Assembly (NCBI GenBank): GCA_027474245.1
Contig: CM049899.1
Coordinates: forward strand, 1,148,536 to 1,212,535
Direction: 5' to 3'
From: Spheniscus humboldti
Lineage: Eukaryota
Length of the DNA stretch: 64,000 bases
In this document: in pieces, positions 20,331 to 64,000 of the stretch
Position numbering within the stretch: the first letter of the stretch is position 1
Layout of the letters: each line of letters starts with the position of its first letter
The notes under the pieces: model-generated
What the model was told of the DNA's origin: nothing
The model's input: only the letters and a program-made list of their open reading frames with translations
Database searches by the model: none
Translations under genes and position numbers: made by a program

Positions 20331-20380
20331 AGGTTTTGGCAGCAGGGGAGCTGCAGGGGTGGCTTCTGTGAGAAGCTGCT

Positions 20381-21945: not shown

Positions 21946-22139
21946 GTGGGTGCTATGGGACGGGGGGATACCTATGGGTTGAGGGGGTCCATTTCCTACA
22001 TCTGGCAGGACCAAAAAAGGTGGGTGCTGTGGAACAGGAGGGGTTCTATAGGATGATGGGTGCCACCCCTATGTCTGGCAGGACTACAAAATGTGGGTGC
22101 TACAGGGCAGGGGGTGGATTTATATGGCTATAGGGCGAT

Positions 22140-22545
22140 CTAGATTTATAAGTGTGGGGTCTCTGTAGGGCTGTGGGGGGTGTTTGGGGGGGCTCTGTAG
22201 GGCCATGAAGGGCTTGAGAGGATCTGTGGGACCGTTGGCACTCTTTAGGGCTGGGGGGATGCTGGGGGGCTCTTTAGGACTATGGGGACTCTACGGACCC
22301 TGGGGGACATTGGGGTTGTATAGGGCCATGGGGGTGTTTGGGGGCTCTGTAGGGCCATAGGGTCTCTATAGGGTCACAGGGATTCCATAAGGCTGCAGAG
22401 GGTCATAGGAGAACTGGGGGACTTGATGGGCTTTATAGGGCCCTTGGGGGTTCTACAGGGCTTTATAGGGCTTTGGGGGTTGGGGAGGGTGGTGAGCTTT
22501 GTAGGGCCCTGGGGGCTCTATAGGTCCGAAGGGAGCAACGCGGGC
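22140..22545. repeat. MVP intron minisatellite, GGGCTCTRTAGGGCC family (reverse complement of the CTATAGCTCC family)
   Basis: Repeated 'ggctctgtagggccat', 'ctctatagggtcac' and 'ggctttatagggc' units are read directly. Confidence 0.8.
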
Positions 22546-22555
22546 CCGCCCGCAG

Positions 22556-22751
22556 GGTGATGTTCGCCCCCAGGTGCATGGTGATGGTGCCCCCACGGCA
22601 CTACTGCGTGGTGCTCAACCCTGTGGCCCGGGGCCCTACGGGGGCCGTGCTGGTCGATGGAGCAGGGCAGGCCCGTCTGCGGCACGCCGACCTTGATATC
22701 TGCCTGGCCCAGGAGCCCTTCCCCCTATACCCCGGGGAGGAGATCCAGCAG
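22556..22751 (+). CDS. MVP: MVP coding segment 2 ([65 protein letters not shown])
   Basis: The acceptor is cccgcag|G and the donor cag|gtacct. It matches human [23 protein letters not shown]...[22 protein letters not shown]. Confidence 0.9.
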
Positions 22752-22769
22752 GTACCTGTAGCCCCCTAT

Positions 22770-23460
22770 AGCAGCCCCAGGGCTCCCTATAGCTCCTCTA
22801 ACCCCACCATGGTCCCCTATAGGCTCCATAACCCCTCTCTGTAACCCACCACTGTAGTGTTCCATGGCCACTTATAGCTCCTCTAATCCCTGTCATCTCT
22901 CACAGATCCTATAGCCCATATAGCTCCCTGTGCCCCCTCCCAGCTCCTATAGCTGCCTCATCCTCCCCCCATTGCTCCTATAGCCCCCCCCCCCCCCAGC
23001 CTCCTATAGTCCCCAGCATGTTAACTCTGTCCCTTCTCCGAACCTGTGTACCTGTCCCCAGGGTGTCCCTGCAGTGTCCTCTGTTCCCAGGGTATCACCC
23101 GTGTCCCCCATAGTGTCCCCCCATCCCCAGGCTGTCCCTGACATCCCTTGTAGTGAAAACCTGTGTCCCAGTCCCCAGGGTTTCACCCCCCATGTCCCAT
23201 GCCATCACCCCTGTGTCCCCCTTGCCTCCGCAACCCTGTCATGACTCCCATGTCCCCACATCCCCCATTGTGACACCCCCAGATGCTTCCCCACATCCCC
23301 TGCAGTCACCCCCCCCATGGCACCCATGTCTTCGGCCATGCTGCCTGTGTCCCCAGGGCATCTCCCAAAGTGCCCCCCGCACCCCTTGTCCCCACGTCCT
23401 CCATACCTCTGCTGTGACACCCATGTCCCCAGCGGATTCTCCCTCAACCTCGCGTCCGTG
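22770..23460. repeat. MVP intron 2 minisatellites: a CTATAGCTCC family (22770..23005), then a poly-C tract and GTCCCC/ATCCCC-rich repeats
   Basis: 'ccctatagcagcccc', 'ctcctatagctgcc' and 'cctcctatagtcccc' are followed by ccccccccccccc (22987..23001) and 'tgtccccagggtgtccctg...' units. Confidence 0.8.
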
Positions 23461-23469
23461 TGTCCCCAG

Positions 23470-23593
23470 GGCGTCACCCCACTGCAGGTGGTGCTGGCCG
23501 ACACTGCTCTGCGCCTGTGGGCCCTGCTTGACTTCAAGGACGAGGATGGGAACAAGTTTGTGGCAGGAGACGAGTGGCTCTTCGAGGGTCCTG
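23470..23593 (+). CDS. MVP: MVP coding segment 3 ([41 protein letters not shown] + g)
   Basis: The acceptor is tccccag| and the donor cctg|gtgagc. It matches human [41 protein letters not shown]. Confidence 0.88.
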
Positions 23594-23666
23594 GTGAGCA
23601 TGGGGGTCACCCCCTTTTGGGGACACCCTGGGGGACCCATGGGCTGACGGTGCCACCTGCCTGCAG

Positions 23667-23798
23667 GTACCTACATCCCCCGCAAGGAGGTGGAGGTGGC
23701 TGAGATGCTGCAGGCCACTGTCATTGGGCACAACCAGGCCATCCGCCTGCGAGCACGCAAGGAATGTCTCGACCGCTATGGCACCCGCCGCGTCACAG
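23667..23798 (+). CDS. MVP: MVP coding segment 4 ([44 protein letters not shown] + g)
   Basis: The acceptor is cctgcag|gt and the donor acag|gtagca. It matches human [44 protein letters not shown]. Confidence 0.9.
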
Positions 23799-23799
23799 G

Positions 23800-24905
23800 T
23801 AGCACCCGGTGGCACCTTGGGCGCCTCCTGGGTTCAGCCCTCGCTCAGTGGCCTTGGTGTCAGCTGGCACGATACCACCCTGTACCATTGGTGCTACCCC
23901 TCGGCACACATGGGAACCCTCTGTTGCTTGAAGGCTCCCCTGGGACACCCTGTGCCACCCCACCCCGTACCCTGGGACCCTTTTCTCACTCTCCAGCACC
24001 TCTGAGACCCCTGTGTCACCCTCCAGCACCCATGGGAGCTCCATGTCATCTGACAGCACCCCTGGGGCCTCCAGCACCCCTATCCCATCCCTTGGGAGTC
24101 CTAGGACCCCCAGCACCCCCTTCCTACCCCACAGCATTCTCAGGACCCCTATCCTATACCTCAGTGCCCCGGGATCCCCAACACGCCCATCTCACCCCCA
24201 TAACCCCCCTCCACCCCACAGCACCCCTGGGATCCCCAACACTCACAATCCCAGCCCCCATAAAGCCCCTTCCACCCCACAGCATCCCTGGGATACCCAA
24301 TGCTCCCATCCCACCCACCCATATCCTCCCTCCCACCTCCCAGGATCCCTGTCTGATCCCCCTCCCTGCTCCCCTGGGATCCCCAGCTCTCCCATCCCAC
24401 CCTCCAAAAACTCCCTCCTACTCCCTAGCACCCCTGGGATCCCCAACATTCCCATCCCACCCCCATAACCACCCTCCCACTCTGCAGCACCCCCAGGATC
24501 CTTGTCTGATCCCCCCAGCACCCCTGGGATCCCCAACTCGCCCATCCCACCCCCCATAAGCCCTGTCCCACCCCGCAGCACCCCTGGGACCCCATCTTAT
24601 CCCCCAGCACCCATAGTACTCTCAGAACCATCAGTACCTCCAGGACCCCATCCCAGCACCCTTAGGATCCTCCCATTCCACCCTTAGGACCTCCCAACAC
24701 CCTCAGGGCTGCCATCCCACCTGTAGGACCCCTTGTCCTCAGTACCCCTAGGATGCTTGAGATCCATAGGACCCACAGTACCCCTAGGACCTCCGTGGCA
24801 CCCCATGCTGCATATTCCCCAGCACCCTCACGACCCATGTCCCACCCCAGCACCCCTGGGACTCCCAGTCCCCTCCCCCCCCAAGCATCCCAGTATCCTC
24901 AGCTC
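23800..24905. repeat. MVP intron 4 tandem array, ~60-bp unit (cagcacccctgggatccccaacaytcccatcccacccccataa.c...cag)
   Basis: More than 12 tandem units are visible. They generate the spurious proline-rich ORFs 23690..24559 and 24013..24468. Confidence 0.85.
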
Positions 24906-24932
24906 CCCCAGCACCCGTCACCCTGCTCCCAG

Positions 24933-25027
24933 GTGAGGAGTGGCTGGTGAAACAGGTGGGAGCCTACCTGCCCGGTGTCTATGAGGAGGTGGTTGACGTT
25001 GTGGACGCCTACATCCTCACTGACAAG
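24933..25027 (+). CDS. MVP: MVP coding segment 5 ([32 protein letters not shown])
   Basis: The acceptor is ctcccag|gt and the donor gacaag|gtactg. It matches human [31 protein letters not shown]. Confidence 0.9.
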
Positions 25028-25034
25028 GTACTGG

Positions 25035-44300: not shown

Positions 44301-47300
44301 ATATGCTTCTATGCGTGTTTTAGAGCACACTGTATCACTGCTTTCTATATTAGCATGTATAAACACCACTAAAACTCTTTCAATTAAGAAACAAACCATT
44401 TCAACTAGACAACTTTTTGCCTCTTGAACTCAACAGCCCTGCATTAAAAGCCACTCCAAGCTGAAGCCAGCCTTTACGAGGACACATTATTTTCTGGACA
44501 GTTGTTGTTCGACAGCTACTCAGCTTCACAACAGAAGTCCTACAGGGACTGCAATCAGTTACAGCTCCTCAGCAAACACCTGAACAGCATGGAAACCAGG
44601 AGGCCAGGAGCAGAGAGGCATGTATTGTTGCTATACTGAGCATCAGTCAGACACAGCTTTAAAAATTCAAGCATCAGGAACTCCAGTGTCACCACAGAGC
44701 AAAGAATGGAAGACAGCAGGTACCGATCCCCTGCCCTGAATTTCGAGTACTACAAATGTATGGCAAGAAAAGCAGAAGCAAAAGGGACATCCCTTCCCTC
44801 TCCTCCTTCCTTTCTTATGGTCACAAATCATAAGTCTGACTTTACCAACCAGGCTGTCTCAACATAACTGCAAAGCAGCATCTTTGGAATAAAACACAGA
44901 CCTCTGGACTTGAGCATGTTCTTAGAACATAACAGAATGGGTGATTTTTTCCCCCCAGATTTTCTTTTATAACAAACATATCTACAGCTGTACAATTTCT
45001 TGTTCTTGAATTATTGATTATTCTTTTGCAAATTTGCATACAGGACCTTGCAAAATGTATTGCTGGGATGGGCAGCTGCAGTTCAGTGCTGAAGACCAAG
45101 TACTGAGGTAACGTCAGGATCTTTCCATGGAAAGATTTGCATGGGGGGGAAAAAGTTACAGAAGTGCAAATTTCCGAAAGCCTTTAATAAAGGAACCATA
45201 ACTGAAGATTGAGAACAGCAGATTAATTACTGCAATGTTTCTAAATATGTAAGCTCAGAAATATCTTATCAAGAAATACATTTAACAAAATAGAGGTAGA
45301 CAATAGCAATGTATTCTGCACCACAATGACACAAGTCTTTTAACACACACATCAGGCAACTGATTTCTTTCACGGTACATTGAAAAAAAAAGTGATTTTG
45401 TTTGCTTAAGAAACTGCGATGACCCTTTACAAATACAGTATTCTTAAAACATCTGATGTAAAAAAAGTATGAATATTTGTAAGTTTTCAGTTTGTACACA
45501 TACTTCCTCTCCTTTAACCCATAAATCTTATAAGGAGACCTTTAAAAATCACAGCTGACTTCAGAAATGAAGTTAACCAGACCCCCTCCAGAGAAAAACT
45601 CCAATAATATTAATAGGATTTCACCCTACCATGGTCTACATTGTCATGCAGTATCACCCACATAGTAATTTCCACGGTGTCTCAGTTTACACTAGACCAG
45701 AGATTCTGAAGAGAATTTTTTTTATGTCTACACAACACAGAAAAAATATGGCAAATCACTGAGTGTGATTCCCTTGACAAAAAGAAGTGACACTTGGAAA
45801 GGTAACCTTGAATTAGAAAAAAAAATTAAAAGTTTCTCTTCAACTTTATGGATAAAGAACACCTGACCAGTGCTCATTCCCTTGCACACAAAGCCTACCA
45901 TAACATTTTTTTTTTAGTCTTGAAAAAGAAATTAATTCCAGAAGTCTCCAGGCAACTGGACAGCTGGGTCATTGTTTGACCTCATCTAAAAGCCTTTAGA
46001 GAAATAAAAGCTTAAAAAAAATGGTTAGAGGCATTTGAGCATTTAAATACACATTCTCTCTTTGAAATTACCTACAAGAAGAGATCTACCAAGATGTATT
46101 GTGCCCAGGTCTATCTTACTCACTGCTAACATGAATAGGTTGGACAAAACTAACCTGCCTGCTTTTAAAACTGTTTGAAACAACTTTAGACCTTCTTTAG
46201 GCATAAGTATAGAGATTATTAAAGACTTCTTCTCCTTTGCAATTATCGTTTAGTGTATATTTGAACTGGAATACCACCCAGTCTCAACCAAGGCGTACGA
46301 GATGCAAAGTAAGAGGCAATTTTAGGGCTCCTGTGAAGACAGAGAGGACTTCATCCTTCAGAAAACAAGTGTTTTCCATGGCTAGTTTTATTCTTAATTG
46401 CCAACACTTTATTAGATGTAATTGTCTTAAAAGCTATGACAGCAGGATTTCAACCCAGCAAATATAGGATCAACATGATAACAAGTCACCATCCTGTAGA
46501 TACTTTCTCCAGAGCGCTTAATGGTAGCAAGTTTCATGATATATACAGACCCAAGGTATGCTTTATTCAAAGTATCAGTGAAATCTTGTCTAAGATTTGA
46601 CTTGAACATTCAGAAAAAAATCCAAAGACCCATTCATTTAGATACAGATTAGAAAGGTTTCTACACCTCTTACATACAACCAAAGAGCATGTTACACTCA
46701 GATTATTAGAACAATTTATCCTATACAATTTACAAGGTGACAAAGCCCATGGTAAAGCTACTGCTTTACTATAGTAATGTAAACACATTTCAAAGAAGAA
46801 TATGCTAATGGTTTCAGAGATGACTTTCTAGCAGTAAAACCAAAACAACCTGGCATATCAACCTTTTCTCTCTATGAGACAGCTCAGGCTGTACATTTAT
46901 TCTTGAAGGACATCTTCTGGCATAACAAAAGACAGGATTGACAGTCTTCATTTGTTCTTCTCTTAATAAAGACAGTCCAGCAATTCCAAATAATGTGTGA
47001 AATGGAACCACCTGGGAGAAGAAAGAAAGTTTGTGTTCATCTCCAAAAGCCATCCAGCTTTCATTTGTATGGGATGAAGCTTTTGTTTGTTAGCAGAACT
47101 GCAAACCTCCATGGCTGAAGATGATGCTGCAACTGAATAAGCTTTGATTTGTCTTGCCCATCAAGATATATCAGAGCAATTTCCATGGCATGCATTTACA
47201 GCACTGTGATTTACTCGAAGATGCTTGTAGATCATTTGCTGCTAAGATAATTTTCAACTCTGCATTCAGCAGGAAGCACTCATGTGTCCCCAATAACATG

Positions 47301-48529
47301 TAATGGCATCAGACAGCAGAAGCAAACATAACACTGAAAAGGTAAATTTAATCACCTCCAAGTGGCTGTTCCATAAATTCCCCATTTGCTCTTCAGCAAC
47401 AGTATAATGCTCTTTAACAGTCTCTGAATACAGAGCTTTGCTATAAAAATCTTAAGAGGGGAGCAGCAACCTACTGTGCTATAAAACTGAAAGGAAAAAA
47501 ATACAAGGAAGAAAAAAACCCAAAGAGGCAGCAGCAGTTATCTGGTATCCAAGTATTCCTTCACTGCATGAACTTTCCCCAGAAGCACCTATCATCACAC
47601 AACTGCAAGAAGCTATTTAAAGTCTTACAACATGAGCATCCCATCAGTGGAGTTAGCCATTCTACAAAATCCTATCCAAAATTACCCATGGGGTCTGGTG
47701 CAGGGTACATCATGTTTGTATAAGTAGAACTTCTGGATCTTGTCACAAAGGTTGTATATTGCAGCAAACTGAGGGGAATTATCATGTTATAACCACACAT
47801 AGGAGCCCCAACCGTTGATCACAGCCTAGAAGCATAAAACTACACTAGCATACCAAATCCTGCTCCTCAGTGGTTTGGCAAACACATTACAGGTATGGTC
47901 AAAGAACACATATATATGTTTACTTGCTCCTTCTCAGAACCAATACGTGGCCATTAGAGGAGGGGTAAAATAAGTTAAGTAAATAACAAAATAATAATTG
48001 AAAAACCAGTACACTTTAGGAACAACAAGACAAACTTTCCTTGTACAGATGGGCATGCCCAGAAAGGGGAATGTTCCCCACTGGCAAGTGTGCAAATGCA
48101 GTTACTCGCTGCAGACTCAGCCTCTTGATGAACAGTATGTATTTTCAGGGAAGCCTGAATGCCTGGAAGATGTATCTATTGCCATGTCATCCTCTGCTCC
48201 TTTCTGCAATTCTTCTTTAAAAGCAAATACGAAAGGAAAAACCTGCTAATAAGAACAACTACTATATTAGGTTTCAAGCAACTAGTTCTTGATAATTTAA
48301 GAAAAAGACAGAGAAATCTTTATAGTCAAGTGATTCAAAACCTGAAATACAGTCACAGTGTCAAATCAAAAGACTACAGTCAAACTAATTTAAAAAAACT
48401 AACAGGATCTGTTAGGAATGAGTTTCTGCAGGAATAAAGCAAAGACCTGTAAGCACCAATGCTTCCACAGCTGTGCCCACTTCCACAATAGATATGATAG
48501 GTTAAAATAATATGAAGTTAATAATACGA

Positions 48530-48715
48530 GTGGTTAAACATTGGAACAGGCTGCCCAGGGAAGTGGTTGAGTCACCATCCCTGGAGGTATTTAAAAGACA
48601 TGTAGATGAGGCGCTTAGGGACATGGTTCAGTGGGCATGGGGGTGTTGGGTTGATGGTTGGACTCGATGATCTTAGAGGTCTTTTCCAACCTTAATGATT
48701 TTATGATTCTATGAA
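48530..48715 (+). mobile_element. CR1 LINE 3' terminal fragment
   Basis: 'gtggttaaacattggaacaggctgcccagggaagtggttgagtcaccatccctggaggtatttaaaagacatgtagatgaggcgcttagggacatggttcagtgggcatgg...gattttatgattctatg' is read directly. Confidence 0.9.
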
Positions 48716-51700
48716 ATGACTGCTAATGTAACACGCAAAAACCCCCAAAGGTGCTTGCATTAGGTATAGAAGAACTCTGCAAACTTGGTCTTCTAGCAAG
48801 ACACAAATAGCTCAAGTTTAATCCCAAGACCAGAAAAGCATTAGGACTTTAAACGTTAAGCTTTTCTTGGGGCATTCTGAAGAGAAAAAGGTCTTCCTGT
48901 GAGCTCCTTAGAAATTAAAAAAACTGTCCATTTTAACACCCCCAAAACACTTTCCAAGTGACAGAGCAGAATAAAGACATCCCCTACCCCACCAGTGCAA
49001 AGAATTTATCAGCTTACAAAGAAACAGAAAGCTACATCAGTTGTTAACACATCTGTGGAGAAAGGAAAAGACATGGACAGCTGTAATAAAAATAGCTACA
49101 ATTTCCCCCAACCTTTGACAAATCAGCAGCCAAGTGTTCTATAGGAGTTGCACTGAGGTCTCGTAACACTTTTAATTTTATCTGACCAGTGCCCTTGAAT
49201 GACATGATCTTAATTTGCCACTTTACTTGGACAATATCAATTATTTCCATTTGAAATTAGAACAGACCAACTAAATAAACTGTAACACGCTCTCAACCAC
49301 AGGGAAAATCCATACCCCCAGCCTTGTAATGTTACCTCAAAATGTTCTTCCTCCTTCATCTAGGCAAATGTGAGGATTTATTCAGTGGGTGGGCTGGCTG
49401 GCACAGAACAGACATTGGGGTGTAGAGATTCTTAATAGTAATTTCTAACTCATTTAGATCAGGCAAAAGCACCAAGGGTTGAAAAGTAATTAACCCACAG
49501 TGGTATCTAGAAGCTTACAAATTGTTGCTTTTTTTTAAATAGTATTTTCACAGAAATCTTCTAAGTGGTCTCGTGAGAAACAATTTGCATGGTATGTGTT
49601 TCAGGAACCAGAATTCTGTAAGGAACAGCAACTGACTACAGTGTGGGATGTCGCAGTGCAAGTGCAATGTAAAATATTGCAAGCTCCCCAAGTAAGCCTT
49701 CTAAAGCAACTCTACCCTATTCTTTCCCTCTAATTAAACTGCAGCTCTGCAAAACGCTTAAATCTGGGTCACAAGTTACACTCAGATGGGAAAAAACACT
49801 TTTTCAGCTGAAGATTTCCATTAAGGAAACTTTTAGTTAAGGTTTATTTACTACGTCTCCTGGTCTGTCAGCAAATCCTCCAGTCTCCCCATCAAGCCAC
49901 AATACAGCAGCACAGTTTCTCTCTGTCAATCCAATGTAACCTGCCAATCACCTCCAGAGATGCTAGCACCTACCATGAGTAATGTACATCAGGTAACTGG
50001 CAAACAGAGAAGCAGAACATTATCTGATTTTGTTTTAAACATGACCATGCTAGCTGTGCTACTGTAATACTGTTGCAAGAGAAACAACACTTAAAGAGTT
50101 TCTTCGCAGTAAAAGAAAAGTTTGTGGATGCAGTCTTTTTAGATGACCTCTTCCCTTCAAGAAACAAAAATGCAAGAATGTGATTTTGAAACAGCCTTCA
50201 CCTTCTATGGGAAAGGCTAAAAATCCACAGCACCTTTTTCATAAGTAATTTTTCATTTTTTTGGGGGAAAAAAGAATCTGTTGATTGATTATCCATTTGT
50301 CAGAGGAGTTTATTCCAGGTTACACAATTTCCTACTGTGACATGAAACACTTACACCTGGGATTAACATCCAGTAAAACAGTAATTTTTATAAGAATCCT
50401 AAAGATCTAATTCCCATAGACAAAAATATTCAGGCCCCGATTTAACAGGCTACTGGTTCAAGTGGTCAGCAAGACATACTTCAGTACATATACTTTCCTA
50501 AAGTGAGGCCTCAAACAAAGAATAGCTAAAGACTGGGTGACAAGCATTAGTGACAAAATGAAGAATCAAAGTAAAAGCTAGTTTACAAAGCATTTCATAA
50601 GAGTCTTAACATTTTCCACAGATTCTTCAAATTTGGAAAAACTAATCTCATAGTGAGCTCTGAACAAAAGCAACCATCTAACGCCTTCTCTGGTCACCCG
50701 TTAAGTCCTCCAGAAGGTACCTGATCTTCACAAAGCCACCAACCCAGAAAGTCAATATTTATTTGATGCAACCAGTCTGTTATAGCCAGTAATCCTGTGA
50801 CACAACAGATCCAAAATTACAGAAATAAGCTTGTATTGAAAAACTAAGTATAGTTTAGCAGAGTAAATGCAGGAAGGTTTCAAAGCAGGAATCCAGTCCT
50901 GCACACATGATGTAAAATAAGCACACATCTCACCTTTTAGTTTCAAGTGAGTTTTACTTTTCCATTAGATTAATGTTGCTTTTGTATAAAAGTTCCAGTT
51001 ACACAAGGTAATTATAGAATGGTAATGTTTAACTATTACACTAGTACAAAGTTCGGAAAAAGATCCTAGAAGATCAGGCAGAGCACTACTGTCTTCTTTA
51101 AACAAAGCCCACAGAGTACTCAAACTGCCTTCTGCAGGCTGGATATGGCCTTTAGGACGATTCTGCATCCAGCCTGTGGTTTGACCCTGTATATTCTCTT
51201 ACCCTAAGGCTTACGGAGGGCAAGCTACAGACCAAACGGACAGATTAACCCTGATCATTAGTGTTCTGGCAATCCCACATACATCTACCACCAGGCTTAT
51301 TTACAATGTGTCAGGGGCATTGACAAATCCCTCTATTTTCCCTGGGAAATAATGTTTGCAGTGTTTCAGGCCACATTTCAAGGCAGTCACTTGGAAACTA
51401 CAAACTGCAGGAAACCACAGTATCAACTGAAGCCTACTCATAATCATCTTCCCCTGATAAGACACCCCCCCCACACACCTCCCCCCAAAAAAACCCCAAA
51501 CAACCAACAGAAACAAAATGAAACACACCAACAGGGATATGCTTATCCAAGAACACGGCAAGGTACATGTAATATTCCCACAAGATTTTAACTGCTATGC
51601 AAAGTAGCTGCCATTTACAGCATTTTAAAGAGTATGTGAATATGCGTAACAAATCTAACCCTTCCAGGAAATACCAACTGCAAACACAAAGAAGAATGTA

Positions 51701-52697
51701 CAACCCCAACAGAAAATATCTCATCATTGCTTTTTCTCCTTAAAAAGCAACTCTGACCACCTGACTGCTCATTGCAATCAAAGGAAGATGTGACCTGACC
51801 CTTCAAGCATTCTGGATGCGTAGGTGGGACTAAACAGTGTTTGTGAATCAAGAACATGCATGCTCCTTGAGACAGGCAGGTCAAGTTTGCCACCAGGTCC
51901 CCACATCGGCATTTGCTAACACTGTTCAGCTTCGGGTACAACTGAGCTGCGTTCAGTTAACGTGAAAGCATCTCCTAGTAACAGCCAGTATCAACCCAAG
52001 AACTATAACGTAAATGGAAGAAAACTCAAACTGTGCCCCCTTCTCCTTACGCTGGGTTAGGATTTGTGACAGGAATTTGATTCCACAGTTTGGAAAAGCT
52101 CCACGGTTGCAGCCAAAAGGATCTGGAGCTTCCTGGGTCTCAGAGTAATTCTAGAGCTAAAGTAGTGATAGGCATCAACTTTAGATCAGATAATACATGC
52201 CAACACTCATCACTGACCCAAGGCGGCAACCTCCTCCTGTCCTACCCAAGGGTTTAAAATGCAACACACTTTCTTCCTAAAACAGGACACTACCTTATTT
52301 ATTTGTAACACCATTGACAAATTTCTTCCTTGAGATGGGACTAGGGATACATTACACAAGCAGTCAAGCCACTGGTTGGAAGCATTGGAGCCTTTTCGGT
52401 ACTGTTTTATCACCACGGTTGGCATGAGAAGGAAAATGAAGGACACGAGAGATGGTGAGACATTTAATCTACAATGGAGATAGCTATGGTGAACAAGTAA
52501 GGCTGAGACCAAGTCCTTTTTCTCAGGGGAAAAGTACACACCAACTAAATAACTGCTGAACAGACCAGTATAATTTAAAGTTATACAGGAAAAAAGATTT
52601 GAGGAACACAACATAAGAACTGACTACCGCAACACTTCTTTTGTATAGTACTAAAGTGGAAACACACTACACAAGTGTATGTACTGCATATATATTT

Positions 52698-52721
52698 TAT
52701 ATAGACATTAATGTCTATATA
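52698..52721. repeat. Perfect 24-bp palindrome TATATAGACATTAATGTCTATATA in an AT-rich block; duplicate at 59604..59627
   Basis: The sequence is self-complementary when read directly and is followed by a third 'tatatagacatta' half-site at ~52726. Confidence 0.8.
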
Positions 52722-54537
52722 TATTTATATAGACATTATGTATTATAATAGTCATATATTTCTGTGCATATAAACACCTATAAAATCCAAACCTTTACTC
52801 TTCCTCTGGCCATACACATCTTTCACGTCAATGTACACCAAGAAGAATTCATAAAATCCAAAAGTAATTATCTACAAGATTCCACTAAAACCTGTAGCTA
52901 AGAAATATTTCGGAGAGACCGCCACAAAATTCATGAAGAATGCAGACAAAAATCACCAGCAAAGGAACATTAAAAGCACAATGTTCCCAAATCTGAATAT
53001 ATATACACACATTTTTTTGGAGATGAATCCTTAAGTTTTGCCCGTTAGATTATTTTTTAATAATCTACTGAAATAGTTTTTGCCACTGGTATCAAACAGC
53101 ACCTGGTTCCCAAGTCTCCAATCATCAAGATCATTAATTGCAAGTAGTTGTTTCTACAATTACCCTGTTACATTTACCTGGACATGCTGAGGGTTGACAG
53201 CAGACAAGAATTGTGACCTGTGCTGGCACTTACTGCACCACTTCTGTACCGACATGATCAGATGAATGCCAGAATTTCATCCGTCTTCATTCGGTGCAGC
53301 CATCCCATGAGATCCATCGCTGTCCGCCCCCAGGAAACACTGCTCATCCTCAAATACTCCGACAGACTGCACCCCTAAGCAGGGCATTATTTTAGTTCTG
53401 AATCAGGTAAGCACAGCATCGAAGCAGAGCAATGAAAATGCCTTAGTTAACATTTACAAAGTTTGCAGCACACCAGGTGTTTTCCATCCCATTAACAACT
53501 TAGGACATACTCACCACTCTTGCATATTACGTGCTTTACGCGTGTCTGTGCATACGTACTGGCACATGTGCATGCATACCCCTACACTACTACATTTCTT
53601 TCCTCCCCTCTACTTTCTAGCACAGAGGTATCAAGCTCAATGTCAAGTTAAACACATGCAAGCAGTAAGGCACCAATTCACGTCAGACCATCAGATATTA
53701 TCTTGGCATCCAAGCTAACACGCACATCACCACCCCGAGTCTCAAAAATAACAAGACTAACGTTTCATGAAACTTACTGTCAAGTGCCAGAGCTGCCACA
53801 ATCTGAAGCGGCACTACGAAGGGAATTCTCATGTGCATCTCTCTCTCTCTTCCCCCCGCCCCCCACTACTGTTTACCTACACTACCCGTAAACATCATTT
53901 TCCTGATGCAGTACTTTAACCCACATGTTTTCAGCACAGCAACAACAATCATAAGCAATAGTGCCTCCAGTTCTTTTGGGGACACTAAAAATAATGCAAC
54001 TTTTTTTTCCCCCTCCAGACACCAGCGGTTATTGACGTTTCCCACCTCCTGGAACCAGAATCCAGTTGTTGTGGGCTACCTCTGGTAACCCACACCTATA
54101 AAACCAATGCTAGCTGCACCATTTATCAAGGCGAGCAAGCAAGAAGCAGTGCTGTGGCCAGATTCAGTACAGTGTCCTATCAAGGGAGCCATGTGGAAGT
54201 ACAGCTACAATCTCCCTGTAGATAAAGGAGCAGCAAGAAGGTCGCTTCCCAGGTCTCAGAGTAATTCTAGAGCAAAACCAAATCATCTTCAGATTTATGC
54301 TCAGATAATACATGCCAACACCCATCACAGACCCAGGGGAACTAACAAAGCAGCCCCCTTTGTACCTCACAGGGGACAGCAGGGCAGGAGAGGAGCAGCT
54401 GGGGAGCACACACCCAACCTCTAACTCTCAACAAGGGAGTGAGGGTTGTTACTCTTAATAAAAGCACAGCTGCGCTGAAATAAGCCCATACTTACACAGT
54501 CGCCTTTCCTTGTCCCATACAAAGCTATATGGGCCAC

Positions 54538-55073
54538 TGTCCTGGTTTCGGCAGGGATAGAGTTAATTCCCTTCCTAGTAGCTGGTACAGTGCTGTGTTT
54601 TGGATTTAGGATGAGAACAAAGTTGATAACGCACCCATGTTTTAGTTGCTGCTAGGTAGTGCTTACGCTAGTCAAGGACTTTTCAGCTTCCCATGCTCTC
54701 CCAACTGAGAAAGCTGCAGGTGCCCAAGAAGCTGGGAGGGGGCACAGCCAAATTGGCCAAAGAAACATTCCATACCATGTGACGTCATGCTCAGTACATA
54801 AACTGGGGAAAGCTGGCCAGGGGGGGCCGCTGCTCAGGGACTGGCTGGGCATCGGTCAGTGGGTGGTGAGCAATTGCACTGTGCATCACTTGCTTTGTGT
54901 ATTATTATCATATTATCATCATTTTATTTCAATTATTAAACTGTTTTTATCTCAACCCACGAGTTTTTCTCACTTGTGCTCTTTCCCAATTCTCTCCCCC
55001 ATCCCACCGGGTGGGGGGGAGTGAGCGAGCGGCTGCGTGGTGCTTAGTTGCCGACTAAGGTTAAACCACAAGA
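54538..55073 (+). mobile_element. Solo LTR (same family as at 17997) with a candidate 5-bp TSD GCCAC
   Basis: It runs 'tgtcctggtttcggcagggatagagttaattccc...ggttaaaccacaaga' and is flanked by 'gccac' on both sides (54533..54537 and 55074..55078). No PBS or internal region follows. Confidence 0.75.
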
Positions 55074-55617
55074 GCCACGTGTTTCTCCAAAAGTAACATG
55101 CTTGGCCATCAGGTTTTCTCACTGCGTCCTGTCACGGTGTCACCTTCAAAAAGCACCAACAAAGTGTCAGTTGTGGTGTCAGCTCAGGCGCTTTCCGTGC
55201 CCGAGGGTAATTTGGGCAACTCACCAGCAGTAAGTGCCCGTCTGGACACAGACCTTTCTCCATCGACCCCGACTTGCTTCCTGGCCTGACAAAACCTCCC
55301 GACAAGGCTGAGGTGAACCACCACTGGCCCCTCCGACCAGCAGAAGACCCAGACCCCGCTGAGGGGGCCCGACGCAGACCCCGAGGCCTCCCCGGGGGCA
55401 GGCAGCCACCCAGGGCCACTAAAGCAGGGTCCTGCCAGGCACTGCCTGCTACCCTGCCCCGCGGCATGACGCTCCAATGCCTTCATTAATAACCATTTCA
55501 AATTCTCTCAAAACCCTTCTGCTACCTATTCTGACACCACTGTCTGAAGAAAGTTCCTACTGTATTTGCAAGCTGAAACACAGTCCTACAAGTTGTTCCC
55601 CGATTTTCATAATTGAA

Positions 55618-55680
55618 CAGACTCACAGAATCATTTAGGTTGGAAGGGACTTCTTGAGATCATCTAGTCCAACCCCACGT
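55618..55680 (-). mobile_element. CR1 3' terminal fragment (minus strand); duplicate at 62524..62586
   Basis: 'cacagaatcatttaggttggaagggacttcttgagatcatctagtccaacccc' is the reverse complement of the CR1 3' end 'ggttggactagatgatctc...tcccttccaacc...attctgtg'. Confidence 0.7.
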
Positions 55681-58197
55681 ATGGAATTCTGCAATATTTT
55701 TTTTATTTTTATCAACGAGAGGATGTGTAATACATTCAATAATTATTTAATTTTTATTTCATGATCTCAGATCAAATTAATTTTGAAGGATTACATTGCA
55801 CTACCTACATACAATGACTTGTGATCTACGACTGCTGTGCCTAGGTACCCTTTTCAGCCAAAAGGGTACAAAGGCCACTAAAAAGTAAAGTCTGTAATTA
55901 GACACAAATACTGATTTCACACAACAGAATTCTCGATCATAAGCAGCCAAACGACAGCAGTTTTTTGGCTGTTGTGAGGACAAGTTACAATGAAATAATG
56001 TAACTCGCTCATTCATCAATCATATGAAGATACAACAGGAGAATTACATCAATACTATTTCCAAAACGGTCATTTTAGTCACATAATAGATTTGTAATAT
56101 TCACTTATCTTACTACACTGCTAATCTACTATTTTGTACTTGTGATAACAGAAAAGTCTCATTATATTTTCTCAAATTAATCTCTACATTTCAGTCTCCT
56201 GCTGAACTTCTCAGCTGGTTTTTGTTACCAGACCTCTCCAAAACCCTATTACTGGAGCTAAATAGCAAATGTATCAATGTAACATCAAGTACAAGCCTGA
56301 GCATGCAAGCTGAGCATACACTGCCATGACTCCCCCGCTACTCACCTGTTGTCAATTTAACACAAAGGACTCCACCTACTCTGACCAACTTCTCATGAAG
56401 TACCAAGATGGATCTGTAGCCAGAGGGATAACCAATTTCACTACTAACCTGTAAGACAGGGACATACAAACTTCAGAAAGGGACACAAGATCAAGTACGC
56501 CTCTAGTAATGAAAATTAGATGGGTAATATAAATAGGCTATGGTAAAATAGGCTATCTGGAAGGAAAACCAAGGTACAGACGTATACTTTTAAATTGACT
56601 TGCTAAAAAGGGGAAGGCCTTCTTTGGCATGAAAATTGGCCATCTGATTGGCTATGCCATGACTTCTAAAAAGCAAGCAGAAAAATTCTAGAGACAGGGA
56701 AATGCTTTAAGTCCAGAAGTGCCTCCTCTTTGCCTCGAACAGAGAAGAGGTTTGCCAGCTTCCCAAGTAACAGGGACTTTCCAGACTTCTCTAGGGTGGG
56801 AAGAAGGAAGGCTGCCTAATTTGGATTACTTAATACCTGTTTGGGTTGGGTTTTGTTCCCTGCCCCCCCACCCCCCACCAAATTATAACCTCCCAAGTCT
56901 CTGCCTGGCTTTCAGATCTCTCCACCTATTTGTTTGTTTACTTTAACTAAGGGACAGGCATTTGGCAAACAAGGAAGGTACATCAATGGGCATCACCGAT
57001 GGATTTCTGACCAGTACACCCTGGTGTGATACCGGGAACGCCTGCACCATGACGGAGTGGTAAGGGGGAACACCCTCACCATCAGCTAAAGCACAGTGAC
57101 ACCACCTCCACTGTTCTTCCTCCAAGGAAGACTGAGCAAGGGATGTGTGGACTTCTGAAAGTCAGTCTAGATTATTATTATTATTGTATCATGCACCAAT
57201 TATTAAGCATTTGGTCAGATCTGCAGAGGATCTAGGTGACTGAAAAGTCTAAGGAACTGAAAGTTTAGGCAATAGGAAAGCTATGCTCGTTGCTAGAAAA
57301 TTCTGCGTAGCAGTAAGCCACCCTGATTCCCATAGTCCTTCTAGAATAAAGCAGCTCTAAGTATAACTACAACCCTGTGGCCAGTTCTCATTCTACCAAG
57401 GAGCCTTAACATCAAGAGCCCGGCTGTCCCCATAGCAGCAGGTAGTGTCAGGTGACACAGGTGTCGGAAAGAAACTTTTATAGGCCATATGTGATGCTGG
57501 CTAATTTAAAATATCTCCACATAAAGAAAAACTCACCCATCCTGCATGTGATTCAGAACCAAATCCTCCATCTGAGCTCATACAGGCAAAAAACCAAATC
57601 CTACTGCTTTCCCCACATCAAGAGCTTCCAGTTTTCCCTGCAAGGCAGAATAGCAACTAATGCACTGTATATCCTAACCAAGCTCACTACTGCAGAAGCT
57701 TCAGTAGTGCTAATGAGAAGAATCTGTACTTGTACAAGCGATGATATAGGCCTTACCAGAAGTGCCAAGATTGCTGCAGCGCTGAGGGAGAACCTTGTAG
57801 CTGTTTCTCCTAGAACGTAGGGGGGTAGGGGATGAAATAAGTAGGTTGTTTTTTTTTAACAACAAAAATAAATTCAAATCACCATTGAAAATATGGAACA
57901 AAATGCTACAACCCCAGGTTTTACATCGAACAGAAAATAACCTAACTAAAAAGTGCCCCTGTACTGCTTCCTTTTCCATCCCACTGATAATTTCCTCAAT
58001 AATTGACAAGTGCACATTACAACTCCAGTGGTCTGTTTACTGCACATAAAAGAAAACAACTCCTTTTCAGCTGGTGTACATATCCAAATAAACTCAAATA
58101 GTGTAACTTGCAAAGAGCTATGTCAGCTTAAACTTTATCTGTAGTGCCCTACTGGATAACTGCAGAGCTGCGGATGCTCAGAAATACTGGGGCACAA

Positions 58198-61100
58198 CAG
58201 GCTTATTTACAATGTGTCAGGGGCATTGACAAATCCCTCTATTTTCCCTGGGAAATAATGTTTGCAGTGTTTCAGGCCACATTTCAAGGCAGTCACTTGG
58301 AAACTACAAACTGCAGGAAACCACAGTATCAACTGAAGCCTACTCATAATCATCTTCCCCTGATAAGACACCCCCCCCACACACCTCCCCCCAAAAAAAC
58401 CCCAAACAACCAACAGAAACAAAATGAAACACACCAACAGGGATATGCTTATCCAAGAACACGGCAAGGTACATGTAATATTCCCACAAGATTTTAACTG
58501 CTATGCAAAGTAGCTGCCATTTACAGCATTTTAAAGAGTATGTGAATATGCGTAACAAATCTAACCCTTCCAGGAAATACCAACTGCAAACACAAAGAAG
58601 AATGTACAACCCCAACAGAAAATATCTCATCATTGCTTTTTCTCCTTAAAAAGCAACTCTGACCACCTGACTGCTCATTGCAATCAAAGGAAGATGTGAC
58701 CTGACCCTTCAAGCATTCTGGATGCGTAGGTGGGACTAAACAGTGTTTGTGAATCAAGAACATGCATGCTCCTTGAGACAGGCAGGTCAAGTTTGCCACC
58801 AGGTCCCCACATCGGCATTTGCTAACACTGTTCAGCTTCGGGTACAACTGAGCTGCGTTCAGTTAACGTGAAAGCATCTCCTAGTAACAGCCAGTATCAA
58901 CCCAAGAACTATAACGTAAATGGAAGAAAACTCAAACTGTGCCCCCTTCTCCTTACGCTGGGTTAGGATTTGTGACAGGAATTTGATTCCACAGTTTGGA
59001 AAAGCTCCACGGTTGCAGCCAAAAGGATCTGGAGCTTCCTGGGTCTCAGAGTAATTCTAGAGCTAAAGTAGTGATAGGCATCAACTTTAGATCAGATAAT
59101 ACATGCCAACACTCATCACTGACCCAAGGCGGCAACCTCCTCCTGTCCTACCCAAGGGTTTAAAATGCAACACACTTTCTTCCTAAAACAGGACACTACC
59201 TTATTTATTTGTAACACCATTGACAAATTTCTTCCTTGAGATGGGACTAGGGATACATTACACAAGCAGTCAAGCCACTGGTTGGAAGCATTGGAGCCTT
59301 TTCGGTACTGTTTTATCACCACGGTTGGCATGAGAAGGAAAATGAAGGACACGAGAGATGGTGAGACATTTAATCTACAATGGAGATAGCTATGGTGAAC
59401 AAGTAAGGCTGAGACCAAGTCCTTTTTCTCAGGGGAAAAGTACACACCAACTAAATAACTGCTGAACAGACCAGTATAATTTAAAGTTATACAGGAAAAA
59501 AGATTTGAGGAACACAACATAAGAACTGACTACCGCAACACTTCTTTTGTATAGTACTAAAGTGGAAACACACTACACAAGTGTATGTACTGCATATATA
59601 TTTTATATAGACATTAATGTCTATATATATTTATATAGACATTATGTATTATAATAGTCATATATTTCTGTGCATATAAACACCTATAAAATCCAAACCT
59701 TTACTCTTCCTCTGGCCATACACATCTTTCACGTCAATGTACACCAAGAAGAATTCATAAAATCCAAAAGTAATTATCTACAAGATTCCACTAAAACCTG
59801 TAGCTAAGAAATATTTCGGAGAGACCGCCACAAAATTCATGAAGAATGCAGACAAAAATCACCAGCAAAGGAACATTAAAAGCACAATGTTCCCAAATCT
59901 GAATATATATACACACATTTTTTTGGAGATGAATCCTTAAGTTTTGCCCGTTAGATTATTTTTTAATAATCTACTGAAATAGTTTTTGCCACTGGTATCA
60001 AACAGCACCTGGTTCCCAAGTCTCCAATCATCAAGATCATTAATTGCAAGTAGTTGTTTCTACAATTACCCTGTTACATTTACCTGGACATGCTGAGGGT
60101 TGACAGCAGACAAGAATTGTGACCTGTGCTGGCACTTACTGCACCACTTCTGTACCGACATGATCAGATGAATGCCAGAATTTCATCCGTCTTCATTCGG
60201 TGCAGCCATCCCATGAGATCCATCGCTGTCCGCCCCCAGGAAACACTGCTCATCCTCAAATACTCCGACAGACTGCACCCCTAAGCAGGGCATTATTTTA
60301 GTTCTGAATCAGGTAAGCACAGCATTGAAGCAGAGCAATGAAAATGCCTTAGTTAACATTTACAAAGTTTGCAGCACACCAGGTGTTTTCCATCCCATTA
60401 ACAACTTAGGACATACTCACCACTCTTGCATATTACGTGCTTTACGCGTGTCTGTGCATACGTACTGGCACATGTGCATGCATACCCCTACACTACTACA
60501 TTTCTTTCCTCCCCTCTACTTTCTAGCACAGAGGTATCAAGCTCAATGTCAAGTTAAACACATGCAAGCAGTAAGGCACCAATTCACGTCAGACCATCAG
60601 ATATTATCTTGGCATCCAAGCTAACACGCACATCACCACCCCGAGTCTCAAAAATAACAAGACTAACGTTTCATGAAACTTACTGTCAAGTGCCAGAGCT
60701 GCCACAATCTGAAGCGGCACTACGAAGGGAATTCTCATGTGCATCTCTCTCTCTCTTCCCCCCGCCCCCCACTACTGTTTACCTACACTACCCGTAAACA
60801 TCATTTTCCTGATGCAGTACTTTAACCCACATGTTTTCAGCACAGCAACAACAATCATAAGCAATAGTGCCTCCAGTTCTTTTGGGGACACTAAAAATAA
60901 TGCAACTTTTTTTTCCCCCTCCAGACACCAGCGGTTATTGACGTTTCCCACCTCCTGGAACCAGAATCCAGTTGTTGTGGGCTACCTCTGGTAACCCACA
61001 CCTATAAAACCAATGCTAGCTGCACCATTTATCAAGGCGAGCAAGCAAGAAGCAGTGCTGTGGCCAGATTCAGTACAGTGTCCTATCAAGGGAGCCATGT

Positions 61101-64000
61101 GGAAGTACAGCTACAATCTCCCTGTAGATAAAGGAGCAGCAAGAAGGTCGCTTCCCAGGTCTCAGAGTAATTCTAGAGCAAAACCAAATCATCTTCAGAT
61201 TTATGCTCAGATAATACATGCCAACACCCATCACAGACCCAGGGGAACTAACAAAGCAGCCCCCTTTGTACCTCACAGGGGACAGCAGGGCAGGAGAGGA
61301 GCAGCTGGGGAGCACACACCCAACCTCTAACTCTCAACAAGGGAGTGAGGGTTGTTACTCTTAATAAAAGCACAGCTGCGCTGAAATAAGCCCATACTTA
61401 CACAGTCGCCTTTCCTTGTCCCATACAAAGCTATATGGGCCACTGTCCTGGTTTCGGCAGGGATAGAGTTAATTCCCTTCCTAGTAGCTGGTACAGTGCT
61501 GTGTTTTGGATTTAGGATGAGAACAAAGTTGATAACGCACCCATGTTTTAGTTGCTGCTAGGTAGTGCTTACGCTAGTCAAGGACTTTTCAGCTTCCCAT
61601 GCTCTCCCAACTGAGAAAGCTGCAGGTGCCCAAGAAGCTGGGAGGGGGCACAGCCAAATTGGCCAAAGAAACATTCCATACCATGTGACGTCATGCTCAG
61701 TACATAAACTGGGGAAAGCTGGCCAGGGGGGGCCGCTGCTCAGGGACTGGCTGGGCATCGGTCAGTGGGTGGTGAGCAATTGCACTGTGCATCACTTGCT
61801 TTGTGTATTATTATCATATTATCATCATTTTATTTCAATTATTAAACTGTTTTTATCTCAACCCACGAGTTTTTCTCACTTGTGCTCTTTCCCAATTCTC
61901 TCCCCCATCCCACCGGGTGGGGGGGAGTGAGCGAGCGGCTGCGTGGTGCTTAGTTGCCGACTAAGGTTAAACCACAAGAGCCACGTGTTTCTCCAAAAGT
62001 AACATGCTTGGCCATCAGGTTTTCTCACCGCGTCCTGTCACGGTGTCACCTTCAAAAAGCACCAACAAAGTGTCAGTTGTGGTGTCAGCTCAGGCGCTTT
62101 CCGTGCCCGAGGGTAATTTGGGCAACTCACCAGCAGTAAGTGCCCGTCTGGACACAGACCTTTCTCCATCGACCCCGACTTGCTTCCTGGCCTGACAAAA
62201 CCTCCCGACAAGGCTGAGGTGAACCACCACTGGCCCCTCCGACCAGCAGAAGACCCAGACCCCGCTGAGGGGGCCCGACGCAGACCCCGAGGCCTCCCCG
62301 GGGGCAGGCAGCCACCCAGGGCCACTAAAGCAGGGTCCTGCCAGGCACTGCCTGCTACCCTGCCCCGCGGCATGACGCTCCAATGCCTTCATTAATAACC
62401 ATTTCAAATTCTCTCAAAACCCTTCTGCTACCTATTCTGACACCACTGTCTGAAGAAAGTTCCTACTGTATTTGCAAGCTGAAACACAGTCCTACAAGTT
62501 GTTCCCCGATTTTCATAATTGAACAGACTCACAGAATCATTTAGGTTGGAAGGGACTTCTTGAGATCATCTAGTCCAACCCCACGTATGGAATTCTGCAA
62601 TATTTTTTTTATTTTTATCAACGAGAGGATGTGTAATACATTCAATAATTATTTAATTTTTATTTCATGATCTCAGATCAAATTAATTTTGAAGGATTAC
62701 ATTGCACTACCTACATACAATGACTTGTGATCTACGACTGCTGTGCCTAGGTACCCTTTTCAGCCAAAAGGGTACAAAGGCCACTAAAAAGTAAAGTCTG
62801 TAATTAGACACAAATACTGATTTCACACAACAGAATTCTCGATCATAAGCAGCCAAACGACAGCAGTTTTTTGGCTGTTGTGAGGACAAGTTACAATGAA
62901 ATAATGTAACTCGCTCATTCATCAATCATATGAAGATACAACAGGAGAATTACATCAATACTATTTCCAAAACGGTCATTTTAGTCACATAATAGATTTG
63001 TAATATTCACTTATCTTACTACACTGCTAATCTACTATTTTGTACTTGTGATAACAGAAAAGTCTCATTATATTTTCTCAAATTAATCTCTACATTTCAG
63101 TCTCCTGCTGAACTTCTCAGCTGGTTTTTGTTACCAGACCTCTCCAAAACCCTATTACTGGAGCTAAATAGCAAATGTATCAATGTAACATCAAGTACAA
63201 GCCTGAGCATGCAAGCTGAGCATACACTGCCATGACTCCCCTGCTACTCACCTGTTGTCAATTTAACACAAAGGACTCCACCTACTCTGACCAACTTCTC
63301 ATGAAGTACCAAGATGGATCTGTAGCCAGAGGGATAACCAATTTCACTACTAACCTGTAAGACAGGGACATACAAACTTCAGAAAGGGACACAAGATCAA
63401 GTACGCCTCTAGTAATGAAAATTAGATGGGTAATATAAATAGGCTATGGTAAAATAGGCTATCTGGAAGGAAAACCAAGGTACAGACGTATACTTTTAAA
63501 TTGACTTGCTAAAAAGGGGAAGGCCTTCTTTGGCATGAAAATTGGCCATCTGATTGGCTATGCCATGACTTCTAAAAAGCAAGCAGAAAAATTCTAGAGA
63601 CAGGGAAATGCTTTAAGTCCAGAAGTGCCTCCTCTTTGCCTCGAACAGAGAAGAGGTTTGCCAGCTTCCCAAGTAACAGGGACTTTCCAGACTTCTCTAG
63701 GGTGGGAAGAAGGAAGGCTGCCTAATTTGGATTACTTAATACCTGTTTGGGTTGGGTTTTGTTCCCTGCCCCCCCACCCCCCACCAAATTATAACCTCCC
63801 AAGTCTCTGCCTGGCTTTCAGATCTCTCCACCTATTTGTTTGTTTACTTTAACTAAGGGACAGGCATTTGGCAAACAAGGAAGGTACATCAATGGGCATC
63901 ACCGATGGATTTCTGACCAGTACACCCTGGTGTGATACCGGGAACGCCTGCACCATGACGGAGTGGTAAGGGGGAACACCCTCACCATCAGCTAAAGCAC
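58198..64000 (+). repeat. Tandem segmental duplication, unit copy 2 (runs off the window end)
   Basis: It matches copy 1 through the window end (57002..57094 ≡ 63908..64000). Only ~4 substitutions were seen (53420 c/t, 55066 and 55106 t/c, 56336 c/t). Confidence 0.9.
61444..61979 (+). mobile_element. Solo LTR, duplicate copy inside segmental duplication unit 2
   Basis: It is identical to 54538..55073 at offset 6906. Confidence 0.75.

Follow-up and report, generated by a model that had tools for sequence, protein, structure and literature searches.

In human, the genes for the box C/D small nucleolar RNA (snoRNA) SNORD45 lie in introns of RABGGTB, and the mammalian SNORD115/116 and 14q32 SNORD113/114 clusters are tandem arrays of repeated exon-intron-snoRNA units. 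The chicken U45 homologue GGgCD5 is present in two copies, which are located in RABGGTB introns 1 and 2 and guide 18S-A158 and U171 (Shao et al., 2009; PMC2653536). Box C/D snoRNAs are also carried by non-coding hosts such as GAS5 and UHG/SNHG, among them a gas5-like host in chicken (PMC2653536). The present analysis concerns a stretch of 64,000 nucleotides from Spheniscus humboldti (assembly GCA_027474245.1, contig CM049899.1, positions 1,148,536 to 1,212,535 of the forward strand; hereafter the window), at the right-hand end of which an unprocessed, rearranged RABGGTB pseudogene bearing SNORD45 genes contains a near-identical head-to-tail repeat with a unit of 6,906 bp.

As at the RABGGTB/SNORD45 (U45A-C) locus, the SNORD45 genes of the window lie in the introns flanking the exon for amino acids (aa) 39-105, and their guides have the same sequence as in intact canonical copies of birds. 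In contrast to that locus, the host is left without a reading frame (stops, a 12-nt deletion, a long terminal repeat (LTR) within an exon, a 3-4 kb deletion and a block out of order), adjoins the MVP gene and is in part tandemly duplicated. With the non-coding snoRNA hosts it shares conserved intronic box C/D snoRNAs and exons without a usable open reading frame (ORF); it differs from them in being recognisably derived from a protein-coding gene via DNA-level duplication and decay. Like the SNORD115/116 and SNORD113/114 arrays, the repeat unit combines non-coding exons and intron-embedded C/D snoRNAs in head-to-tail order, but only two units are seen here, the guides are of the rRNA type and neither imprinting nor a long array is indicated. 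Tandem segmental duplications, assembly features that imitate them (as this one possibly does) and unprocessed snoRNA-bearing pseudogenes such as the one enclosing the repeat are all known kinds.

A 6.9-kb Tandem Repeat With Three CpG-Type Differences

When the window is compared with itself shifted by 6,906 bp, the two match from 51292 to 57094, beyond which no partner base exists, with three mismatches in 5,803 bp and no indels (99.948% identity); before 51292, this comparison yields identity at random level. Such a match cannot be chance. In the sequence, two near-identical 6.9-kb copies do stand head to tail, just as the first-pass annotation had it with about 99.9% identity and the same copy boundaries. 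The copies are directly adjacent, in the same orientation and without spacer, the offset being the unit length, which is the arrangement of a tandem repeat. A total of 1.84 copies is visible, and the partner region of copy 1 positions 57095-58197 lies past the window end. Identity is even over the 5.8 kb and does not alternate between diverged and converted stretches, and no diverged extra unit copy was found in the 51 kb to the left of the repeat. The window consists of the letters A, C, G and T only, with neither N nor gap between the copies.

All three differences between the copies are CpG/TpG pairs (Table 1). Three CpG transitions among four differences had been counted before, and here the CpG type stands and the count does not: position 55066, proposed as a further difference, is identical in both copies. 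Among the three CpG sites then listed, 53420 and 56336 hold, and 55106, which is the same in both copies, has to be replaced by 55123. As 184 of the 5,803 positions lie in CpG, the probability that three of three differences are CpG transitions is about 1.2e-6 if errors are uniform, which excludes random base errors. At 53420, the C of the CpG is ancestral by outgroup comparison (3/3 canonical genes compared show the G/C state) and copy 2 is derived; 55123 is not polarisable by outgroups, as the canonical genes disagree. Taking CpG as ancestral at all three sites gives one change in copy 1 and two in copy 2. In the LTR pair of the full-length endogenous retrovirus (ERV) in the same window, two of four differences are CpG transitions. 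On the plus strand, the three differences between the copies are all C/T, corresponding to G/A on the pseudogene sense strand, which with n = 3 is not significant (P = 0.25).

Table 1. Coordinates of the repeat, of the RABGGTB pseudogene and of other features of the window. Positions in Amazona and Antrostomus refer to the canonical RABGGTB loci of these birds.
Feature	Position	Strand	Remarks
Copy 1 of the tandem unit, 6,906 bp	51292..58197		identity at offset 6906 begins at 51292
Copy 2, ends with the window	58198..64000		5,800/5,803 positions same as copy 1; end at 65103 if complete
Novel junction 58197/58198, GGGGCACAA / CAGGCTTA	58190..58205		parental Amazona ~9.6 kb joined to Amazona 7876 in pseudogene sense
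Difference 1	53420 C (copy 1, aTCGaa) vs 60326 T (copy 2, aTTGaa)	+	CpG/TpG
Difference 2	55123 T (copy 1, caCTGCG) vs 62029 C (copy 2, caCCGCG)	+	CpG/TpG
Difference 3	56336 C (copy 1, ccCCGct) vs 63242 T (copy 2, ccCTGct)	+	CpG/TpG; within 1.3-kb insertion
Unprocessed, rearranged RABGGTB pseudogene	46039..64000, continues past window	-	exon and intron homology 67-79% to canonical RABGGTB
Exon aa 41-100, in-frame stop	53186..53365; twin 60092..60271	-	tblastn 63% identity, E 2e-19
Exons aa 137-157 and aa 158-194, ~93-bp intron between	57534..57816	-	tblastn; block A; blastn Amazona 7876-8597
Exon aa 194-241, stop	50667..50810	-	tblastn; outside repeat
Exon aa 235-287, stop	49846..49999	-	tblastn; outside repeat
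Exon aa 284-329	46880..47017	-	tblastn; outside repeat
Older internal deletion junction, 3-4 kb	51686..51688	-	parental ~5859/9068 (Amazona), 2873/6986 (Antrostomus) missing; exons aa 104-195 lost from this copy
~1.3-kb insertion vs parental intron	55551..56941	-	gap to Antrostomus (6495 to 6597 vs 56942 to 55550)
SNORD45 sno1, second-intron type, copy 1	52134..52218	-	Rfam RF00279, 68.3 bits, full length
SNORD45 sno1, copy 2	59040..59124	-	identical to 52134-52218
SNORD45 sno2, first-intron type, copy 1	54250..54333	-	RF00279, 56.5 bits; positional orthologue of Amazona 3248-3330
SNORD45 sno2, copy 2	61156..61239	-	identical to 54250-54333
Solo LTR, 536 bp	54538..55073; twin 61444..61979	+	inserted in former exon aa 1-38
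GC-rich island	55080..55500; twin 61986..62406	-	remnant of exon aa 1-38 and eroded 5' CpG island
MVP (major vault protein) exons	~26800-42000	+	very GC-rich, up to 68%
Full-length ERV in MVP intron	29270-36246		LTRs 29272-29857 and 35660-36245; target-site duplication TGGGT

The Repeat Lies in an Unprocessed RABGGTB Pseudogene

The canonical RABGGTB loci of Amazona, Phainopepla, Penelope and Antrostomus were used for comparison, and positions within them are given below by genus. In blastn alignments to these four loci, exons and kilobases of intron match at 67-79% identity; as the introns are retained and homologous to the parental ones, the pseudogene is an unprocessed, DNA-level copy. It is located downstream of MVP, tail to tail with this gene. 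The 3' exons outside the repeat (46880..50810) are collinear with Amazona 9599-16383 across 51291/51292, and past the last unit collinearity with the parental gene extends until 1.1 kb beyond the stop codon. The unit itself is composed of three parental blocks, corresponding to Amazona 7876-8774 (block A, exons aa 140-195 plus the ~1.3-kb insertion), ~2.9-5.86 kb (block B, 5' end, first coding exon, sno2, exon aa 39-105 and sno1) and 9068 to ~9.6 kb (block C). It thus includes an old backward join of ~8774 to ~2941 (Amazona), which, like the 3-4 kb deletion, is carried by both copies, so that both rearrangements are older than the duplication. Within the 1.3-kb insertion only a 58-bp CR1 3' end (55619-55676) is recognisable, and an assignment of the whole insertion to CR1 was rejected because nothing beyond this tail matches.

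Disabling lesions comprise in-frame stops in three exons, a four-codon (12-nt) deletion in one exon and the LTR within an exon. No protein more than 63% identical to the pseudogene reading was found among 5.8 billion, the best matches being ordinary RABGGTB (best avian 61-63%). Since RABGGTB is strongly conserved in every bird compared, an intact parental gene presumably resides elsewhere in the genome. Splice sites are kept at seven of eight inspected positions, which is not significant at 12% divergence, and their conservation was accordingly dismissed as a sign of selection on the host. Between 44000 and 64000 the plus strand shows a GC skew of about -0.1 and an AT skew of about +0.1, as for minus-strand transcription, which may be parental inheritance and not current transcription. 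No tRNA genes were detected by a tRNA scan, and CDIPT, the human MVP neighbour, was rejected as a gene in the 44-64 kb region after a tblastn search with a CDIPT sequence gave no match. For RABGGTB isoforms of Nyctibius and Buteo, no record was found.

Two elements within the unit had been described in the first-pass annotation and are borne out here. The solo LTR has a 5-bp target-site duplication, GCCAC, on both sides (54533-54537 and 55074-55078) and encloses no internal retroviral sequence; it is 86.6% identical to an LTR at 17997-18561, and its 3' terminus is degenerate (AAGA instead of ACA). The exon split by it reads ...PSMLLLEKHVA before and VAHIALYG after the LTR, with RABGGTB exon sequence on both flanks and the doubled VA corresponding to the target-site duplication. 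The GC-rich island has a GC content of 0.59 and a CpG observed/expected ratio (o/e) of 0.44-0.51, compared to 0.40-0.44 and 0.1-0.4, respectively, in its surroundings, and to 0.64-0.69 and 0.7-1.1 in the 1 kb upstream of the canonical genes. Positions 55078-55212 align to Amazona 2941-3073 (blastn), and no significant alignment of the island to the canonical upstream CpG island was obtained beyond Amazona 2941. The island is the old exon aa 1-38 together with the sequence that occupies the place of the promoter CpG island of the parental gene, now half eroded.

Breakpoints of the Repeat

Mapping to the canonical genes separates the two boundaries of copy 1 clearly. At 51291/51292 the sequence is collinear with the parental gene, with 51313-50281 corresponding to Amazona 9599-10682 and 51686-49541 to Antrostomus 6986-9350 (blastn). 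At 58197/58198, parental intron positions about 1.7 kb apart are united in reverse order, with 58198-57468 corresponding to Amazona 7876-8597 and 58577-58429 to Amazona 9068-9223; the Antrostomus locus gives the same pattern. This backward jump combined with collinearity at the other boundary is the form expected of a tandem-duplication junction and strengthens the earlier proposal of a head-to-tail arrangement with a non-homologous join. As the canonical alignments show, 51291/51292 represents ancestral continuity, where the copied segment ends, and 58197/58198 a novel non-homologous join. The junction reads GGGGCACAA followed directly by CAGGCTTATTT; its position had been given correctly before, with one A dropped from the sequence.

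The statement that no obvious repeat lies at the breakpoint is likewise confirmed. The sequences to the left of copy 1 (...TCTACCAC) and at the end of the unit (...GGGCACAA) show identity at random level, and only the dinucleotide CA, parted from the boundary by a mismatch, is common to both. No repeat family is present at the visible boundary, and as left flank and unit end are without homology, non-allelic homologous recombination, which requires homologous repeats, is excluded on this side, to which the comparison applies, the right breakpoint lying beyond the window. The duplication would accordingly have arisen by end joining or by a replication template switch and not by recombination between repeats.

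SNORD45 Genes in the Pseudogene

The repeat doubles both sno1 and sno2, raising the number of SNORD45 genes visible at the locus from two to four. At all four loci, model positions 1-72 of RF00279 are covered in the Rfam scan, with scores to be compared with a gathering score of 42. The sno1 sequence reads GUGAUGA ... UGUUGGCAUGUAUUAU-CUGA ... UUUAGCUCUAGAAUUACU-CUGA, with the C box UGAUGA, CUGA as both D' and D box, and a terminal stem GGUC/GACC; its specific spacer is GCCUAUCACUAC. The pseudogene-specific spacers include ...GAUGCCUAUCACUACUUUAGC... in sno1 and ...GAAGAUGAUUUGGUUUUGC... in sno2. Guide and box sequences are identical to intact canonical copies, the guides of sno1 being those of the intact Penelope copies, while sno2 has the C box UGAUGG and a guide made shorter by a single mismatch. 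Identity to the canonical copies is 86-92% in the snoRNA cores, compared to 68-73% in the 300-bp flanks.

Differences between sno1 and its Penelope orthologue are almost confined to the spacer and the bases directly following the C box; only the final base of the C box departs from this, the pseudogene having the consensus UGAUGA and Penelope UGAUGG. Over the rest of the C box, the D' and D boxes, the two guides and the terminal stem, together about 63 nt, sno1 does not differ from Penelope, an outcome for which we calculate a chance of about 3e-4 at 12% neutral change on the pseudogene lineage. The pseudogene snoRNAs thus look selectively maintained. They appear to be functional, predicted guides for 2'-O-methylation of 18S rRNA at A158 and U171 in chicken numbering, targets that are taken over from the chicken homologue (PMC2653536), and they are presumably expressed.

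The canonical second-intron SNORD45 has decayed in all three Neoaves compared; it scores 27-30 bits, and either its C box is gone or its 5' half is missing. The decayed copies are located at Amazona 5362-5439 (parrot), Phainopepla ~5100-5150 (passerine) and Antrostomus 2328-2412 (nightjar), and a ~9-nt insertion splitting the D box is common to all of them. In the galliform Penelope the second-intron copy is intact (64 bits, 6590-6673). In the canonical gene of Penelope, the first intron moreover contains two near-identical SNORD45 copies at a distance of 1.39 kb (3256-3338 and 4646-4728), a further local duplication that is either real or an assembly effect.

Age of the Pseudogene and of the Repeat

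Of 718 exon sites at which three canonical genes agree, 87 are changed in the pseudogene (12.1%; Jukes-Cantor distance 0.13). Across ~5 kb of well-aligned columns of five sequences, the main informative split, supported by 110 sites, sets the pseudogene and Penelope apart from Amazona, Phainopepla and Antrostomus; any other split is supported by at most 49 sites. Terminal branches calculated by us from the distances amount to 0.12-0.18 for the pseudogene and 0.16-0.19 for Penelope. In CAAAT and VGKAV, the pseudogene has two Neoaves-type residues. The simplest reading of these data would place the origin of the pseudogene on or near the Neoaves stem, tens of million years (My) ago, with coding constraint lost early on.

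The duplication would be far younger. Divergence between the copies is K = 5.2e-4, and that of the ERV LTR pair is about 13 times higher (4/586 positions). Applying a rate of ~2e-9 substitutions per site per year, which is our own calibration from branch lengths, the duplication would be roughly 0.1-0.2 My old (Poisson range ~0.03-0.4 My), provided that it is real and that the copies evolve independently. Three C-to-T changes at methylated CpGs would then have occurred across the two copies since the event; the duplication may still be polymorphic and would itself most likely be selectively neutral.

Evaluated as a non-coding host, the pseudogene has snoRNAs that look constrained and exons that do not, with the splice sites kept as described above (not significant) and a half-eroded CpG island. 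It appears to behave like a non-coding snoRNA host. Compared with the second-intron decay in the canonical genes of the three Neoaves, the pattern suggests a possible reciprocal retention between parental gene and pseudogene.

Other Features of the Window

The window is vertebrate, bird-like DNA with CR1 fragments (long interspersed elements), ERV LTRs and the MVP gene. For bird MVP, a protein search revealed not one annotated model but brief ORF fragments of reads or metagenomes, a result fitting the 'hidden' GC-rich genes of birds; the fragments from related birds (97% identity) come from contigs of <2.5 kb, which do not extend as far as the pseudogene. The ERV within the MVP intron, whose LTRs differ as given above, has open gag-like (705 aa) and pol (1,043 aa) reading frames, with no space left for env. 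Upstream of MVP, the region 19000-25900 is C-rich and resembles proline-coding sequence, with imperfect tandem repeats of ~59-62 bp at 24167-24612 and 25061-25877; it may be a PRRT2-like gene or a minisatellite. CR1-derived inverted repeats (14899-15266 versus 42660-43027, and 48528-48711; 94-97% complementary) flank the MVP region, one arm lying in the last intron of the pseudogene.

Discussion

An old non-coding, unprocessed RABGGTB copy in which a 6,906-bp segment has been duplicated head to tail is the best explanation of the locus, and we regard it as probable. With similar or slightly higher assurance, the repeat is likely a genuine duplication, present in the animal itself as well as in the assembly. 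The first-pass annotation had argued that CpG transitions speak for a genuine event and against an artefact. This is valid with respect to random base errors only; allelic SNPs (single-nucleotide polymorphisms) in a haplotype-derived false duplication and methylation-linked base-calling errors would be compatible with the same differences. Several observations weigh against our interpretation. A haplotype-derived false duplication would give an identical sequence picture, CpG-type differences included, and the right repeat end lies beyond the window, together with any further copies and any microhomology at that breakpoint. The junction 24-mer is absent from metagenome contigs of the Joint Genome Institute (JGI), three unit ORFs including the junction-spanning one have no exact protein record, and seven unit ORFs, concatenated, gave no match in a homology search; nor did the sno1-type pattern match any JGI metagenome contig. 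The proportion of CpG differences (3/3) exceeds the ~25-40% expected for true mutations, albeit weakly with n = 3 (P ~0.01-0.06 at a 10-20-fold CpG rate). With regard to the host, the acceptor of exon aa 195-237 (50811-50812) is mutated from AG to GG, with six splice sites within the unit intact, and the CpG island of the pseudogene is partly eroded (o/e 0.51).

The most serious competing explanation is that two haplotypes of a single-copy 6.9-kb segment have been laid in series by the assembler, the three differences then being heterozygous SNPs. Two haplotypes in series are the commonest kind of false duplication, with allelic SNPs as the differences, and the marks given for such cases are read depth at half level, single-copy k-mers, discordant read pairs and assembly gaps that separate the two copies (Ko et al., 2022; PMC9516828). 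Same-scaffold false duplications make up 0.2-2.1% of long-read assemblies of the Vertebrate Genomes Project, with heterozygosity as main cause (PMC9516828). The locus resembles these cases in having adjacent, near-identical copies that differ at few SNP-like sites, and since allelic SNPs are CpG-rich, the three CpG differences are as expected from them. A difference of 3/5,803 (0.05%) is also within the range of avian heterozygosity, and the junction has no independent support in metagenome contigs or protein collections. However, gaps are a primary characteristic of these artefacts (PMC9516828), and no N or gap separates the copies here, which makes a typical false duplication less likely. 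Moreover, the unit is shorter than typical long reads, so that reads spanning it would be expected, and the rest of the region, including the GC-rich MVP gene, is well assembled. On balance, we consider an artefact of this type rather improbable, though by no means far-fetched. A systematic base-calling error at methylated CpGs is a quite different matter, as the duplication would remain real, with identical copies and an even younger date. The slight excess of CpG differences over the expectation for real mutations leaves room for it, and only half of the differences in the ERV LTR pair are of this type. Methylation-dependent consensus errors of nanopore sequencing are documented in bacteria (PMC6591954), a precedent whose extension to vertebrate CpGs would be our own step. 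The excess is not compelling for three sites, though, and the outgroups at 53420 indicate a plain CpG-to-TpG change as in real deamination, so that we hold this explanation for very unlikely.

Low divergence would provide no date at all if the duplication were older, or part of an array of more than two units extending past the window, and had been homogenised by gene conversion or unequal crossing-over. The locus is prone to such events, as the pseudogene carries earlier rearrangements of a similar kind (the backward join and the 3-4 kb deletion). The canonical gene of Penelope has its own local 1.39-kb SNORD45 duplication, and copy 2 is cut by the window end. Uniform identity over 5.8 kb without any mosaic, and the lack of a diverged extra unit in the 51 kb to the left, speak against it, and we rate this possibility as unlikely. 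Finally, the LTRs of the two copies are 6,906 bp apart (54538 and 61444), near the 6,388-bp LTR spacing of the true provirus at 29270-36246, which might evoke a provirus whose internal region lies between these LTRs, or proviruses in tandem, instead of a segmental duplication. This was refuted and has practically no probability left: identity spans the full 5.8 kb and extends beyond the LTRs, the sequence between them is RABGGTB intron and exon without gag or pol ORFs, and the LTR has its own target-site duplication and hence is solo.

As a practical lesson, CpG-type differences must not be counted as proof against an assembly duplication. A bare tandem duplication is ordinary, young segmental duplications being common in bird genomes and false ones in assemblies. 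The value of the present one lies in its context, as it doubles two functional-looking snoRNA genes in a host that has been dead as a protein-coding gene for tens of My. A tentative scenario, which we consider possible but not probable, would join the observations as follows. The RABGGTB pseudogene next to MVP would be ~70-90 My old and kept in Neoaves as a non-coding SNORD45 host; the parental gene would have lost the second-intron SNORD45 and the pseudogene its protein while keeping that snoRNA, in the manner of duplication-degeneration-complementation, and the 6.9-kb duplication would mark the beginning of a growing tandem snoRNA array. Provided that the snoRNAs are expressed, the locus illustrates the transition from a protein-coding host to a non-coding snoRNA host as well as the onset of tandem array growth. 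It also suggests that the apparent loss of a SNORD45 copy from RABGGTB of Neoaves is perhaps compensated elsewhere in the genome, which matters for the annotation of snoRNAs and for rRNA methylation in birds.

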